The notes under the pieces: generated by a model
The model's input: the letters and a program-made list of their open reading frames with translations, nothing else
The model's database searches: none
Told to the model about the DNA's origin: nothing
Translations under genes and position numbers: made by a program
In this document: in pieces, positions 1 to 6,324 of the stretch
Layout of the letters: each line of letters starts with the position of its first letter
How positions within the stretch are numbered: position 1 is the stretch's first letter
From: Escherichia coli
GTDB lineage: Bacteria > Pseudomonadota > Gammaproteobacteria > Enterobacterales > Enterobacteriaceae
Length of the DNA: 64,000 bases
NCBI RefSeq assembly: GCF_041248615.1
Contig: NZ_CP158426.1
Direction: 5' to 3' (one strand)

Positions 1-227
1 CACAGCTTTTGTGCCGCGCGCTCAAATCCTCGTTCACGTATCACCGCATCCAGTGCCTGTAATGTTCTGTAGTCCGGGCGTTTCATTGCTGTTGTCTGCT
101 CCTGGTAAATGCTTTTTCCTGCACTATGACACAATTTTGTGTCAGGTTGCATATACCGAAGCCGTCGGCGGGTAACATTTGTATTCGTGGTTAAACGCGC
201 AGCTTAAAAGATCAGGGATTTGCGCTA

Positions 228-458
228 ATGCATTTCGCTCAGCGAGTTCGCGCCCTGGTTGTGTTGAATGGCGTGGCGTTATTGCCTCAATTTGCCTGTA
301 AACAGGGGCTTGTGAACGGTGAACTGGTGCGCCTGTTTGCTCCGTGGAGCGGCATACCCAGATTGTTGCATGCCTTATTTGCGGGGCGAAAGGGGATGCC
401 TGCCATTGCGCGATATTTTATGGATGAGTTAACCACGCGGCTTGCCAACGGGGTCTGA
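228..458 (+). pseudogene. yqfE: LysR-family regulator C-terminal fragment (yqfE-like remnant); upstream 1-227 shows only frame-broken pieces
   Basis: 76-aa ORF with LysR effector-domain-like sequence (ALVVLNGVALLP...), no intact N-terminal HTH domain upstream; position between argP side and rpiA matches the K-12 pseudogene. Confidence 0.5.
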
Positions 459-513
459 ATCGCTTTTTTTGTATATAATGCGTGTGAAATTTCATACCAC
501 AGGCGAAACGATC

Positions 514-1173
514 ATGACGCAGGATGAATTGAAAAAAGCAGTAGGATGGGCGGCACTTCAGTATGTCCAGCCCGGCACCATTGTTGGTGTAGGTACAGGT
601 TCCACCGCCGCACACTTTATTGACGCGCTCGGTACAATGAAAGGCCAGATTGAAGGGGCCGTTTCCAGTTCAGATGCTTCCACTGAAAAACTGAAAAGCC
701 TCGGCATTCACGTTTTTGATCTCAACGAAGTCGACAGCCTTGGCATCTACGTTGATGGCGCAGATGAAATCAACGGCCACATGCAAATGATCAAAGGCGG
801 CGGCGCGGCGCTGACCCGTGAAAAAATCATTGCTTCGGTTGCAGAAAAATTTATCTGTATTGCAGACGCTTCCAAGCAGGTTGATATTCTGGGTAAATTC
901 CCGCTGCCAGTAGAAGTTATCCCGATGGCACGTAGTGCAGTGGCGCGTCAGCTGGTGAAACTGGGCGGTCGTCCGGAATACCGTCAGGGCGTGGTGACCG
1001 ATAATGGCAACGTGATCCTCGACGTCCACGGCATGGAAATCCTTGACCCGATAGCGATGGAAAACGCCATAAATGCGATTCCTGGCGTGGTGACTGTTGG
1101 CTTGTTTGCTAACCGTGGCGCGGACGTTGCGCTGATTGGCACACCTGACGGTGTCAAAACCATTGTGAAATGA
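514..1173 (+). CDS. rpiA: ribose-5-phosphate isomerase A
   Basis: ORF track 442..1173; start refined to internal ATG ([12 protein letters not shown]...) giving the 219-aa product. Confidence 0.95.
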
Positions 1174-1428
1174 TCTGACGGGGGAACCTCCCCCGTTAAA
1201 AAAATTCTCTTCATTAAATTTGGTGACATGTGTCACGTTTTTACCTGGCTATTGTCGATTGCTCTAAATAAATCTTCTAAACCAGCATATTCATCCAAGA
1301 ATTACCTTTGCGTGATATTTCCTCAACATCGCGACGCAAACGTTCATATTGCCGCAATATTATTTTTTGATATGTTGAAAGGCGGACGCAAATCCGCACA
1401 CAACATTTCAAAAGACAGGATTGGGTAA

Positions 1429-2661
1429 ATGGCAAAGGTATCGCTGGAGAAAGACAAGATTAAGTTTCTGCTGGTAGAAGGCGTGCACCAAAAGGCGCTG
1501 GAAAGCCTTCGTGCAGCTGGTTACACCAACATCGAATTTCACAAAGGCGCGCTGGATGATGAACAATTAAAAGAATCCATCCGCGATGCCCACTTCATCG
1601 GCCTGCGATCCCGTACCCATCTGACTGAAGACGTGATCAACGCCGCAGAAAAACTGGTCGCTATTGGCTGTTTCTGTATCGGAACAAACCAGGTTGATCT
1701 GGATGCGGCGGCAAAGCGCGGGATCCCGGTATTTAACGCACCGTTCTCAAATACGCGCTCTGTTGCGGAGCTGGTGATTGGCGAACTGCTGCTGCTATTG
1801 CGCGGCGTGCCGGAAGCCAATGCTAAAGCGCACCGTGGCGTGTGGAACAAACTGGCGGCGGGTTCTTTTGAAGCGCGCGGCAAAAAGCTGGGTATCATCG
1901 GCTACGGTCATATTGGTACGCAATTGGGCATTCTGGCTGAATCGCTGGGAATGTATGTTTACTTTTATGATATTGAAAATAAACTGCCGCTGGGCAACGC
2001 CACTCAGGTACAGCATCTTTCTGACCTGCTGAATATGAGCGATGTGGTGAGTCTGCATGTACCAGAGAATCCGTCCACCAAAAATATGATGGGCGCGAAA
2101 GAAATTTCACTAATGAAGCCCGGCTCGCTGCTGATTAATGCTTCGCGCGGTACTGTGGTGGATATTCCGGCGCTGTGTGATGCGCTGGCGAGCAAACATC
2201 TGGCGGGGGCGGCAATCGACGTATTCCCGACGGAACCGGCGACCAATAGCGATCCATTTACCTCTCCGCTGTGTGAATTCGACAACGTCCTTCTGACGCC
2301 ACACATTGGCGGTTCGACTCAGGAAGCGCAGGAGAATATCGGCCTGGAAGTTGCGGGTAAATTGATCAAGTATTCTGACAATGGCTCAACGCTCTCTGCG
2401 GTGAACTTCCCGGAAGTCTCGCTGCCACTGCACGGTGGGCGTCGTCTGATGCACATCCACGAAAACCGTCCGGGCGTGCTAACTGCGCTGAACAAAATCT
2501 TCGCCGAGCAGGGCGTCAACATCGCCGCGCAATATCTGCAAACTTCCGCCCAGATGGGTTATGTGGTTATTGATATTGAAGCCGACGAAGACGTTGCCGA
2601 AAAAGCGCTGCAGGCAATGAAAGCTATTCCGGGTACCATTCGCGCCCGTCTGCTGTACTAA
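1429..2661 (+). CDS. serA: D-3-phosphoglycerate dehydrogenase
   Basis: 410-aa ORF MAKVSLEKDKIKFLLVEGVHQ..., full length. Confidence 0.97.
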   Translation: MAKVSLEKDKIKFLLVEGVHQKALESLRAAGYTNIEFHKGALDDEQLKESIRDAHFIGLRSRTHLTEDVINAAEKLVAIGCFCIGTNQVDLDAAAKRGIPVFNAPFSNTRSVAELVIGELLLLLRGVPEANAKAHRGVWNKLAAGSFEARGKKLGIIGYGHIGTQLGILAESLGMYVYFYDIENKLPLGNATQVQHLSDLLNMSDVVSLHVPENPSTKNMMGAKEISLMKPGSLLINASRGTVVDIPALCDALASKHLAGAAIDVFPTEPATNSDPFTSPLCEFDNVLLTPHIGGSTQEAQENIGLEVAGKLIKYSDNGSTLSAVNFPEVSLPLHGGRRLMHIHENRPGVLTALNKIFAEQGVNIAAQYLQTSAQMGYVVIDIEADEDVAEKALQAMKAIPGTIRARLLY

Positions 2662-2835: not shown

Positions 2836-2980
2836 TGGGGCTGTAACGGTAAAGCCCTCACCGAAGCGAGGGCTTGAAGGAGAAGGGTTATGATGCGACT
2901 TGTCATCATACTGATTGTACTGTTACTCATAAGTTTCAGCGCTTATTAACAGTCAGTCTCAGGGGAGGAGCAATCCTCCC
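2836..2980 (-). ncRNA. sibC: SibC antisense sRNA (antitoxin to ibsC); boundaries approximate
   Basis: Sib RNAs are encoded opposite ibs ORFs (established); stem-loops flank the ibsC ORF (gccctcaccgaagcgagggc, gggaggagcaatcctccc); ends not determinable from sequence alone. Confidence 0.45.
2890..2949 (+). CDS. ibsC: type I toxin IbsC, 19-aa hydrophobic peptide (MMRLVIILIVLLLISFSAY)
   Basis: short ORF with SD aaggagaaggg upstream; sequence recognised as Ibs family; lies in the serA–ygfA spacer as in K-12. Confidence 0.75.
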   Translation: MMRLVIILIVLLLISFSAY

Positions 2981-3049
2981 TTACCCTTACTCACTAAATT
3001 AGGTCAAAGAATCAACGATGTCAATCAGGGCGATGCAGGTGTGTCGCCC

Positions 3050-3598
3050 TTACCACTCCCAGACTTTCGACGGTGTAACCACCGCAGGCAGTGGGATATC
3101 CCACTCTTCAACGGGGAGTTTTTCCACCAACTGACAATCATGCGCATAACCCACCGGTTGCATTTTATAGTGCTGCCAGTTTTGTAAGGTCCGATCATAA
3201 AAACCTCCGCCCATTCCCAGGCGCTGACCGTACTCATCAAAGGCGACCAGGGGGGTGATCAGGACGTCTAATCGGGAAAGGGGGAGCACGTCACGCACAT
3301 CCAATTTTGGCTCATGGATCTTCAACCTGTTCATCACCAGTTCGCTTTGCGGATGGTAATTCAGGAACAGCAAATTACCGGCACTAAAGGGATGCAAAAC
3401 TGGAAGATATACGCGCTTACCGGCGCGCCAGAGTTGTTCTATGAGTGGCTGGGTGTCGAGTTCGCCATCAAAAGAGAGGAATACAGCGACCGTATGTGCC
3501 ATCACCACCGGGGGATAAGTCATCATCCGGGTAGCGGCTTGTTGACCCATTTCCTGCTGTTGTTCCGGCGTTAACGCACGACGACGTTGCCGAATCAT
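3050..3598 (-). CDS. ygfA: 5-formyltetrahydrofolate cyclo-ligase
   Basis: ORF track 3050..3796; start refined to MIRQRRRALTPEQ (182 aa) because the upstream part of the ORF overlaps 6S RNA. Confidence 0.9.
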   Translation of the reverse strand: MIRQRRRALTPEQQQEMGQQAATRMMTYPPVVMAHTVAVFLSFDGELDTQPLIEQLWRAGKRVYLPVLHPFSAGNLLFLNYHPQSELVMNRLKIHEPKLDVRDVLPLSRLDVLITPLVAFDEYGQRLGMGGGFYDRTLQNWQHYKMQPVGYAHDCQLVEKLPVEEWDIPLPAVVTPSKVWEW

Positions 3599-3670
3599 TT
3601 TGCGGATTTCTTGTCGGGATAATGTCAGTGGGAGTTCTGGTAGTTGCGTCATGGCTGGTGCCAGATAAGA

Positions 3671-3856
3671 AGGGAATCTCCGAGATGCCGCCGCAGGCTG
3701 TAACCCTTGAACCCTTGGTTCAAGGTGAATGTGTCGTCGCAGTTTTAAGGCTTCTCGGACGGACCGAGCATGCTCACCAACCGCGGAGCGCCACATTCTT
3801 GTGGTATGAAATATCGGCTCAGGGGACTGGCCCGCTTGCGAACATCTCAGAGAAAT
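3671..3856 (-). ncRNA. ssrS: 6S RNA
   Basis: reverse complement reads AUUUCUCUGAGAUGUUCGCAAGCGGGCCAGUCCCCUGAGCC...GGAGAUUCCCU, matching 6S RNA from memory; immediately upstream of and co-oriented with ygfA. Confidence 0.92.
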
Positions 3857-3897
3857 TTTGTCTTCACGGTTACTCTACCACAGTAAACCGAAAAGTG

Positions 3898-4293
<396 letters not shown>

Positions 4294-4394
4294 CTATAGC
4301 TACCCTGATGAGAAGAGACAAGCCCTTTTCTGGTCCACCAGGGCCCAAAGTGGTAGCATATCATGAATATTCCTCCCTTTGACGACGAATGCTT

Positions 4395-4973
4395 ATGTCT
4401 ATACAGAACGAAATGCCTGGTTACAACGAAATGAACCAGTATCTGAACCAACAAGGGACGGGTCTGACCCCAGCTGAGATGCATGGTTTAATCAGCGGGA
4501 TGATATGTGGCGGTAACGATGACAGCTCATGGCTACCGCTACTTCACGACCTGACGAACGAAGGCATGGCTTTCGGTCATGAGCTGGCACAGGCACTGCG
4601 TAAAATGCACTCTGCCACCAGCGATGCCCTGCAGGATGACGGCTTCCTTTTTCAGCTTTATCTGCCTGATGGCGATGATGTCAGCGTTTTCGATCGGGCT
4701 GATGCATTGGCAGGTTGGGTCAATCACTTCCTGCTTGGTCTTGGCGTTACGCAACCGAAGCTGGATAAAGTGACCGGCGAAACCGGTGAAGCTATCGACG
4801 ATCTGCGTAACATTGCGCAACTGGGTTACGACGAAGACGAAGATCAGGAAGAGCTTGAAATGTCGCTTGAAGAGATCATCGAATACGTTCGTGTTGCCGC
4901 GCTGTTATGCCACGACACCTTTACTCATCCGCAACCGACCGCGCCAGAAGTACAAAAACCGACTCTACACTAA
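4395..4973 (+). CDS. ygfB: UPF0149 family protein YgfB
   Basis: ORF track 4389..4973; start at [15 protein letters not shown] (192 aa). Confidence 0.9.
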
Positions 4974-4998
4974 AAACAAAAAACGTAAGGAGAGTGTT

Positions 4999-6324
4999 AT
5001 GAGTGAGATATCCCGGCAAGAGTTTCAGCGTCGCCGTCAGGCCCTGGTGGAGCAAATGCAACCCGGCAGCGCCGCGCTGATTTTTGCTGCACCAGAAGTA
5101 ACACGTAGCGCCGACAGCGAATACCCCTATCGTCAGAACAGTGACTTCTGGTACTTCACCGGCTTTAACGAACCGGAAGCGGTGCTGGTGCTGATTAAAA
5201 GCGATGACACTCATAACCACAGCGTTCTGTTTAACCGCGTTCGCGACCTGACGGCGGAGATCTGGTTTGGCCGTCGCTTAGGCCAGGATGCCGCGCCAGA
5301 GAAACTGGGCGTTGACCGCGCACTGGCATTCAGCGAAATCAATCAGCAACTTTATCAACTACTTAACGGCCTGGATGTGGTTTACCATGCCCAGGGCGAA
5401 TATGCATATGCTGATGAAATCGTGAACAGTGCGCTGGAAAAACTGCGTAAAGGTTCGCGGCAAAATCTCACCGCACCGGCAACGATGATCGACTGGCGTC
5501 CTGTTGTTCATGAAATGCGCCTGTTCAAATCGCCAGAAGAGATTGCCGTACTCCGCCGCGCGGGAGAAATCACCGCCATGGCACATACCCGGGCGATGGA
5601 AAAATGCCGTCCGGGAATGTTCGAGTACCATCTGGAAGGCGAAATTCACCACGAATTTAACCGCCACGGTGCGCGCTATCCGTCCTATAACACCATTGTC
5701 GGCAGCGGTGAAAACGGCTGCATTCTGCACTACACCGAAAACGAGTGTGAAATGCGCGACGGCGATCTGGTGTTGATTGACGCGGGTTGCGAATACAAAG
5801 GTTACGCTGGCGATATTACCCGCACCTTCCCGGTCAACGGCAAATTCACCCAGGCCCAGCGTGAAATCTACGACATTGTGCTGGAGTCTCTCGAAACCAG
5901 CCTGCGCCTGTATCGTCCGGGAACTTCCATTCTGGAAGTCACTGGTGAAGTGGTGCGCATCATGGTTAGCGGCCTGGTAAAACTCGGCATCCTGAAAGGT
6001 GATGTTGATGAACTGATCGCTCAGAACGCCCATCGTCCTTTCTTTATGCATGGCCTTAGCCACTGGTTAGGACTGGATGTCCATGACGTTGGCGTTTATG
6101 GTCAGGATCGCTCGCGCATTCTGGAACCGGGGATGGTACTGACCGTAGAGCCTGGTCTGTATATCGCGCCGGATGCGGATGTGCCAGAACAATATCGCGG
6201 TATCGGCATTCGTATTGAAGACGACATTGTGATTACCGAAACCGGTAACGAAAACCTCACCGCCAGCGTGGTGAAAAAGCCGGAAGAAATCGAAGCGTTG
6301 ATGGCTGCTGCGAGAAAGCAATGA
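4999..6324 (+). CDS. pepP: Xaa-Pro aminopeptidase (aminopeptidase P II)
   Basis: ORF track 4786..6324; start refined to MSEISRQEFQRRRQAL (441 aa) preceded by aaggagag SD. Confidence 0.95.
   Translation: MSEISRQEFQRRRQALVEQMQPGSAALIFAAPEVTRSADSEYPYRQNSDFWYFTGFNEPEAVLVLIKSDDTHNHSVLFNRVRDLTAEIWFGRRLGQDAAPEKLGVDRALAFSEINQQLYQLLNGLDVVYHAQGEYAYADEIVNSALEKLRKGSRQNLTAPATMIDWRPVVHEMRLFKSPEEIAVLRRAGEITAMAHTRAMEKCRPGMFEYHLEGEIHHEFNRHGARYPSYNTIVGSGENGCILHYTENECEMRDGDLVLIDAGCEYKGYAGDITRTFPVNGKFTQAQREIYDIVLESLETSLRLYRPGTSILEVTGEVVRIMVSGLVKLGILKGDVDELIAQNAHRPFFMHGLSHWLGLDVHDVGVYGQDRSRILEPGMVLTVEPGLYIAPDADVPEQYRGIGIRIEDDIVITETGNENLTASVVKKPEEIEALMAAARKQ

Follow-up and report, generated by a model that had tools for sequence, protein, structure and literature searches.

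Layout of the argP-rpiA interval

The DNA analysed here, a stretch of 64,000 nucleotides from Escherichia coli (the window), opens within the 5' end of argP and leads across a short open reading frame (ORF) into rpiA and serA (Table 1). Positions 1-1200 are 100% identical to many complete E. coli genomes and find a match in 5,425 of 5,426 of them. The genomes identical to the window are annotated in the order argP (minus strand), a 231-bp CDS, rpiA and serA.

Table 1. Features of the argP-rpiA interval, in window coordinates
Feature	Position	Strand	Remarks
argP (iciA) 5' end	1..86	-	Start codon 86-84; first 28 codons plus 2 nt, runs off the left edge
argP-proximal spacer (leader/promoter side)	87..147		Also in intact loci; homology stops at 142-147
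About 40 bp without identifiable source	148..187		Stands in place of ~1.68 kb of the intact locus
3' remnant of azoreductase-like gene, ~residues 182-207 of 209	188..265	-	tblastn and blastn
76-codon chimeric ORF, equivalent of yqfE (b2915)	228..458	+	ATG at 228; stop 456-458
LysR-derived segment: third base of codon 235, codons 236-298 and stop	266..458	+	blastn, Pfam, NCBIfam
Spacer to rpiA ATG (514), 55 bp	459..513	+	TATAAT at 474-479; sequence
rpiA start; serA	514; 1429	+ (rpiA)	Sequence and ORF list

The ATG-initiated ORF at 228-458 is the yqfE pseudogene of K-12 and as such already known. In MG1655 (NC_000913.3), the homologous 231 bp (3,059,381-3,059,611, minus strand) are listed as pseudogene yqfE (b2915), at distances of 55 bp to rpiA and 141 bp to argP, and this entry bears out the proposal of the first-pass annotation that a LysR-family pseudogene, yqfE, lies between argP and rpiA. 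The window allele shares with K-12 yqfE its place between the two genes, its length and the deletion junctions described below. A K-12-lineage allele can be aligned with it from end to end, the DNA being 98.1% identical across all 427 bp between argP and rpiA; within yqfE the window allele differs by A29V, P46L and Y48H and by two synonymous changes, all clustered at 313-374. In the literature searched, we found no description of yqfE as a chimera born of deletions: mentions of yqfE were only incidental, and matches to 'b2915' proved to be unrelated strain or catalogue numbers.

A second LysR-family sequence lies nearby and has to be kept apart from the relic. Positions 86..3 contain 28 codons that are 100% identical to ArgP residues 1-28 (tblastn) and match positions 2-23 of Pfam HTH_1; the argP label given to 1..86 agrees with the annotation of the identical genomes. 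ArgP (IciA) belongs to the same superfamily as the relic, and its HTH-encoding 5' end falls within the interval 1-458 that had been described as one decayed gene, but argP is a separate, divergently oriented and intact LysR-type regulator gene that is not part of the pseudogene. Since ArgP matches the window only at 86..3, argP was rejected as the source of the LysR relic. A relic does exist within 1-458, but the interval as first delimited lumps together the argP start, the argP-proximal spacer, a scrap of an azoreductase gene and the LysR relic itself.

An intact locus between argP and rpiA

DNA comparison of the argP-rpiA spacer with complete E. coli genomes led us to an intact orthologue of the relic. 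E. coli RM14516 carries a full LysR gene of 298 aa (WP_097742346.1) directly upstream of rpiA. The gene order at this locus (2898-6188 of the extracted RM14516 region) is rpiA, LysR and then, divergently, an azoreductase-like gene (209 aa), a DUF1471/BhsA-like gene (86 aa) and a ferric-reductase-like gene (441 aa), followed by argP. Accordingly, argP and rpiA are spaced by 3,416 bp in the intact locus versus 427 bp in the window. By Pfam, the intact LysR protein has HTH_1 at residues 4-63, followed by a full-length LysR_substrate domain at 88-294. The product of the azoreductase-like gene, which resembles FMN-dependent NADH-azoreductases, contains Flavodoxin_2, the DUF1471 protein matches YdgH_BhsA-like, and the ferric-reductase-like protein combines Ferric_reduct, FAD_binding_8 and NAD_binding_1. 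When compared with NCBIfam, the 298-aa LysR protein reached no named equivalog, the best model being PRK14997 with 171 bits versus a cutoff of 380.

Intact LysR orthologues in RM14516, E. whittamii, other Escherichia and Pseudocitrobacter occupy the same position upstream of rpiA as the relic, and the RM14516 gene is 97% identical in DNA to window 266-458 over residues 236-298. Whereas the intact gene encodes 298 aa and faces a divergent three-gene redox operon, the window keeps 63 of its codons and nothing of the azoreductase/DUF1471/ferric-reductase operon save a 78-bp scrap. The relic thus has, as a pseudogene should, partial homology to a gene that is intact at the same position in relatives, here in about 248 E. 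coli genomes and four other taxa.

The segments that are lost in the common allele were each found in 248-249 of the 5,426 complete E. coli genomes (~4.6%), and 233 of these 5,426 carry at least 80% of the whole intact block. Outside E. coli, the gene block is also present between argP and rpiA in E. whittamii, Escherichia sp. E1V33 and Escherichia sp. MOD1-EC7003, and, without the azoreductase, in a Pseudocitrobacter MAG. The intact locus is itself subject to erosion: an IS1 element is located within the ferric reductase gene in several strains, this gene is split in E. coli JX21CE8 and fragmented in other Escherichia species, and the LysR gene of Escherichia sp. MOD1-EC7003 is frameshifted. 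The ancestral module, composed of LysR, azoreductase-like, BhsA/DUF1471-like and NOX-like ferric reductase genes, is being lost piecemeal in several lineages. Its LysR protein probably regulated the divergent operon, and the module as a whole may be a candidate for a redox/electrophile stress module.

Deletion junctions in the common allele

Comparison with the intact loci resolves the short allele into collinear pieces. Window 1-142 is 99% identical to the argP side of RM14516 and JX21CE8 (blastn), and collinearity fades after 142-147. Window 209-265 matches, in antisense, a site inside the azoreductase CDS, with 91% identity in RM14516 and 88-96% across intact loci (blastn); at the protein level, AzoR-like residues 182-207 map to ~264..187 on the minus strand (tblastn, 81% identity, E=1.8e-12). 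From 266 to 700, the window then follows the 3' end of the RM14516 LysR gene and rpiA at 97% identity and without gaps (blastn), a similarity that chance comes nowhere near explaining. The boundary between the latter two pieces, junction B, falls at exactly 265/266 in all intact alleles compared, and the same junctions were found against six further intact alleles.

At junction B, 1,346 bp are missing, which comprise azoreductase codons 1 to ~181, the 100-bp divergent intergenic/promoter region and LysR codons 1-235. At junction A (~147 to ~188), the loss amounts to ~1,683 bp and includes the whole ferric-reductase-like and DUF1471 genes as well as the last codons of the azoreductase gene. The deletion sizes balance the difference in spacing (3,416 - 427 = 1,346 + 1,683 - 40). 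The remaining term corresponds to the 40 bp at junction A (148-187), for which no counterpart was detected in seven intact loci, a word size of 7 included; they are either filler DNA from the deletion event or sequence that has decayed beyond recognition.

Both junctions are common to the K-12 lineage, ST131, O157:H7 and the window strain. These lineages belong to different phylogroups, and their common junctions therefore indicate a single origin that predates the split of the lineages. Alleles carrying only one of the two deletions were not seen among the 5,426 complete E. coli genomes. The search for such intermediates did bring up E. coli WB61, which lost the locus independently through one deletion of ~2.98 kb, with microhomology of 8 bp, that spared LysR codons 210-298. 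The WB61 allele, whose record has an N at the junction, leaves a 71-aa LysR C-terminal ORF that PGAP names 'LysR substrate-binding domain-containing protein'.

An inverted repeat at 120-151, located 34-65 nt upstream of the argP start, spans junction A. Its 15-nt arms (120-134 and 137-151) are 80% complementary and include a perfect core, GACACAA-TT-TTGTGTC, at 128-143. In intact alleles the right arm is far less well formed, and the palindrome was thus improved by the deletion or by a later change. The repeat could affect the argP leader or operator.

Direction and mode of the change

Since no more than ~4.6% of complete E. coli genomes have the intact block, one might conceive of the reverse polarity, whereby the short allele is ancestral and a 3.4-kb block of four genes was inserted in a minority of strains. 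Yet the short allele holds internal fragments of the azoreductase (182-207) and LysR (236-298) genes in collinear arrangement, which an insertion cannot create. Moreover, other Escherichia species and Pseudocitrobacter carry the block at this very position, and no mobile-element boundaries were seen, the IS1 element being secondary and confined to the inside of the ferric reductase gene. Given the presence of the block in other taxa and the internal gene fragments in the short allele, deletion is the only tenable direction, and we attach practically no credence to an insertion.

The first-pass annotation had put forward another history, in which frameshifts and nonsense mutations accumulated in a full-length LysR gene that stayed where it was, leaving N-terminal parts recognisable upstream in other frames, possibly past the window edge. 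The LysR-type HTH encoded at 86..3 might, without tools, be mistaken for such a remnant, but it lies on the opposite strand, is uninterrupted and is identical to ArgP as described above; it is the sole LysR-family sequence in 1-458 besides the relic. A six-frame tblastn search of window 1-600 with the intact orthologue gave one real match (residues 229-298 to 246-455), all others having E>1, and Pfam scans of every other ORF in 1-458 were empty at E<=10. The upstream LysR residues are hence not there. The DNA between argP and the LysR relic is either azoreductase-derived or unassignable, and the distance from the argP start codon to the ATG of the ORF is a mere 141 bp (87-227), whereas the 235 missing LysR codons would take up ~700 bp. 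These codons did not decay through frameshifts and stops; they were physically deleted along with three neighbouring genes, and the proposed mapping of frameshifts by tblastn with an intact LysR homologue accordingly found none to map. Nor can sequence to the left of the window supply a full-length frame, which is precluded by an in-frame stop upstream of the ORF at 192-194 and by the argP start at 86 on the opposite strand. In-place frameshift decay is thus refuted, and as a general account of the locus it keeps only a vanishingly small probability.

A chimeric reading frame

The deletion at junction B joined two genes that had been read from opposite strands. Codons 1-13 of the ORF, including the ATG, are antisense azoreductase sequence, and codons 14-76 are LysR codons 236-298. 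The antisense azoreductase scrap also donates a weak Shine-Dalgarno (SD)-like motif, AGGGA (214-218), 9 nt before the ATG. The intact C-terminal frame of 76 codons that had been noted on first inspection is therefore real as an ORF, but it is LysR-derived for only 63 of the 76 codons and owes its beginning to another gene.

What has been kept of LysR is the very end of the effector domain. Residues 15-72 of the ORF align with no more than positions 151-208 of Pfam LysR_substrate, a model of 209 positions, at 22.1 bits (E=1.1e-4) and thus under the gathering score of 28, and the NCBIfam LysR models are likewise matched only over their last ~60 positions. HTH_1 (PF00126) was matched neither by the 76-aa ORF or its upstream extension nor by the remaining plus-strand ORFs. 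Membership among functional LysR-type regulators fails on every count that we considered: the ORF has no HTH, no complete LysR_substrate domain (PF03466, ~209 positions) above the gathering score, a length of 76 aa rather than ~300 aa, and no divergent target. Without the HTH and ~70% of the effector domain, the 76-aa product cannot act as a LysR regulator.

In a word-index protein search, the 76-aa ORF retrieved short Escherichia/Shigella fragments only and no full-length relative. An exhaustive HMMER search placed the nearest full-length cluster representative at 54% identity; this protein was considered as a clue to the source of the relic and set aside as not informative on its origin. PGAP designates the ORF as 'hypothetical', 'type 2 periplasmic-binding domain-containing' or 'LysR substrate-binding domain-containing protein'.

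The reading frame is not maintained

Among 40 genomes taken at even intervals along the ranked matches, the 76-aa form was present in 26 and a 61-aa form in 6; another 6 had no called CDS and 2 had other forms. The 76-codon frame is thus intact in roughly two thirds (~65%) of the sampled E. coli genomes. The allele alignment reveals how it was altered elsewhere. In 14EC047, a 45-bp in-frame deletion (window 288-332) has reduced the ORF to 61 aa. The same 45-bp deletion is combined in EDL933 (O157:H7) with ATG to TTG and CAG to TAG changes, and no CDS is annotated there, while most of the ORF is gone in E. coli E09. The window allele itself has acquired the replacements A29V, P46L and Y48H relative to the sequence common to K-12, ST131 and the intact genes. 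The frame is not conserved across the population, as is typical of a pseudogene, and we conclude that the ORF is not maintained in E. coli.

The replacements in the window allele belong to a cluster at 313-374, where the window allele departs from K-12, ST131 and all intact alleles by six substitutions within 62 bp, including the three amino-acid changes, between flanks that hardly differ. The cluster points either to a mutational event that hit several sites or to the import of a short stretch from an allele outside the sample.

The K-12 and ST131 proteins are identical (WP_000545308.1) despite five synonymous differences in the LysR-derived segment. Purifying selection was considered as the cause of this synonymous excess and rejected, because four of the five variants occur in intact alleles: 290G and 320G are common to E. 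whittamii, and 338C and 401C to RM14516. Inherited or recombined polymorphism therefore explains the pattern better than selection does. The changes unique to relic lineages, 3 nonsynonymous codons versus 4 synonymous sites, are too few to discriminate.

Might the accidental ORF nevertheless have gained a use? Conceivably, the chimeric 76-aa protein is expressed and has acquired a small-protein function, for example as a LysR C-terminal subdomain that hinders the oligomerisation of ArgP or other LysR proteins. The ORF is intact with its ATG and weak SD in ~65% of the sampled genomes, translation from the AGGGA motif is possible, PGAP calls the ORF a CDS, and the K-12 and ST131 products are identical in spite of the DNA differences. 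However, the synonymous differences are also found in intact alleles. Furthermore, the ORF is destroyed in O157:H7, 15 codons shorter in another large group and mostly deleted in E09, WB61 carries a different fragment of 71 aa in its place, and the window allele has three replacements, one of them Pro to Leu. The consensus scan found no promoter-like site, and the curators of K-12 list yqfE as a pseudogene. Finally, the reduced-genome strain DGF-298 is viable with both yqfE and argP deleted, the loss of yqfE being without consequence (PMC10652928). On balance, we regard a small-protein function as highly improbable. A bolder version, in which the accidental fusion is a new gene, most E. coli express its 76-aa product and this protein modulates LysR regulators such as ArgP by competing at their C-terminal oligomerisation surfaces, appears more improbable still; if true, the fusion protein would represent a de novo start on a pseudogene fragment. 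The ORF probably has neither expression nor function and is drifting.

Origin of the relic

How might the present structure have arisen? Homology, junctions, polarity of change and variability of the ORF are all shown by the comparisons above, and we consider it very probable that window 188-458 is the dead relic of an ancestral gene cluster, formed by deletions and equipped with an ORF that has borrowed its start. We envision an Escherichia ancestor in which the 298-aa LysR gene was situated between argP and rpiA, divergent from a three-gene operon whose products were two flavoproteins, one azoreductase-like and the other a ferric-reductase-like membrane protein, and a small periplasmic protein of the DUF1471/BhsA-like type. 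On the branch from which most E. coli descend, ~3.0 kb net would then have been lost through a pair of collinear deletions or through a single complex event. Deletion A (~1.68 kb) would have taken the ferric-reductase-like and DUF1471 genes. Deletion B, of 1,346 bp, would have removed LysR codons 1-235 together with the promoter region between the divergent genes and the greater part of the azoreductase gene. What is left over is 78 bp of the azoreductase 3' end abutting the last 63 LysR codons, with an antisense azoreductase ATG that happens, by accident, to be in frame with the LysR tail and thereby gives rise to the 76-codon ORF. The presumptive target operon of LysR is gone as well. The relic DNA presumably persists because it is short, fairly young and adjoins the rpiA upstream region.

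The biological weight of this finding is small, given that the relic is of a textbook kind and already carries a pseudogene flag in the bacterial genome that is annotated best. Its value, a modest one, lies in annotation: the NCBI pipeline calls the relic protein-coding under three names in thousands of E. coli genomes, and these calls concern a 63-codon fragment with a borrowed start. The locus also illustrates that what looks like an "intact C-terminal frame" may be pieced together from two genes that lie on opposite strands. The intact four-gene redox locus, which segregates in ~4.6% of E. coli, provides a clean natural example of the stepwise and repeated loss of a locus.

Retained DNA flanking rpiA and argP

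From a different perspective, the retained DNA rather than the ORF might be functional: the last ~190 bp of the LysR gene could harbour promoter elements of rpiA, and the left spacer the argP promoter or operator, such that longer deletions were counter-selected. The LysR stop codon is only 55 bp away from the rpiA ATG, with TATAAT at 474-479, and window 446-565 is 100% identical between intact and deleted alleles. In addition, both the common and the WB61 allele have retained no less than 190 bp in front of rpiA and no less than 56 bp in front of argP; counter-selection of this kind would account for two independent deletions having stopped short of the flanks. Two deletion events are too few to show constraint, however, the E09 and 45-bp-deletion alleles remove internal parts of the relic, and the promoter scan found no consensus site. 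We therefore think it possible, if rather unlikely, that selection on cis-regulatory DNA preserved the relic. Such a role is compatible with an origin by deletion and not opposed to it, and, to judge from the sequence, the relic may possibly contribute in cis to the expression of rpiA.

Because intact and deleted alleles do not differ at 459-513, the region upstream of rpiA must abut or overlap the end of the LysR relic, and the rpiA promoter probably lies near 474-479. The literature searched offered no transcription start data for rpiA. A promoter/terminator consensus scan of window 1-560 returned nothing, with no promoter at 9/12. An Rfam scan of window 1-1500 was likewise empty at E<=1, and hence no known RNA element accounts for the retention of the relic.

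Immediately upstream of rpiA, E. coli E09 has an insertion of ~126 bp (~1779-1905 of the E09 locus, corresponding to ~480 in the window), which is flanked on both sides by a duplicated TATAATGCG.GTGAAATTTCATACCACAGGCGAAACG segment. This insert may resemble an ERIC/IRU repeat element; no copy of it is found within the window.

On the other side of the relic, the InvenireSRNA computational screen lists the yqfE_argP intergenic region as a candidate CsrA-binding transcript with a score of 0.64 (PMC8144298, Table 2). The minus strand of the yqfE-argP spacer (87-227) contains AGGA/CAGGAG motifs just upstream of the argP ATG.
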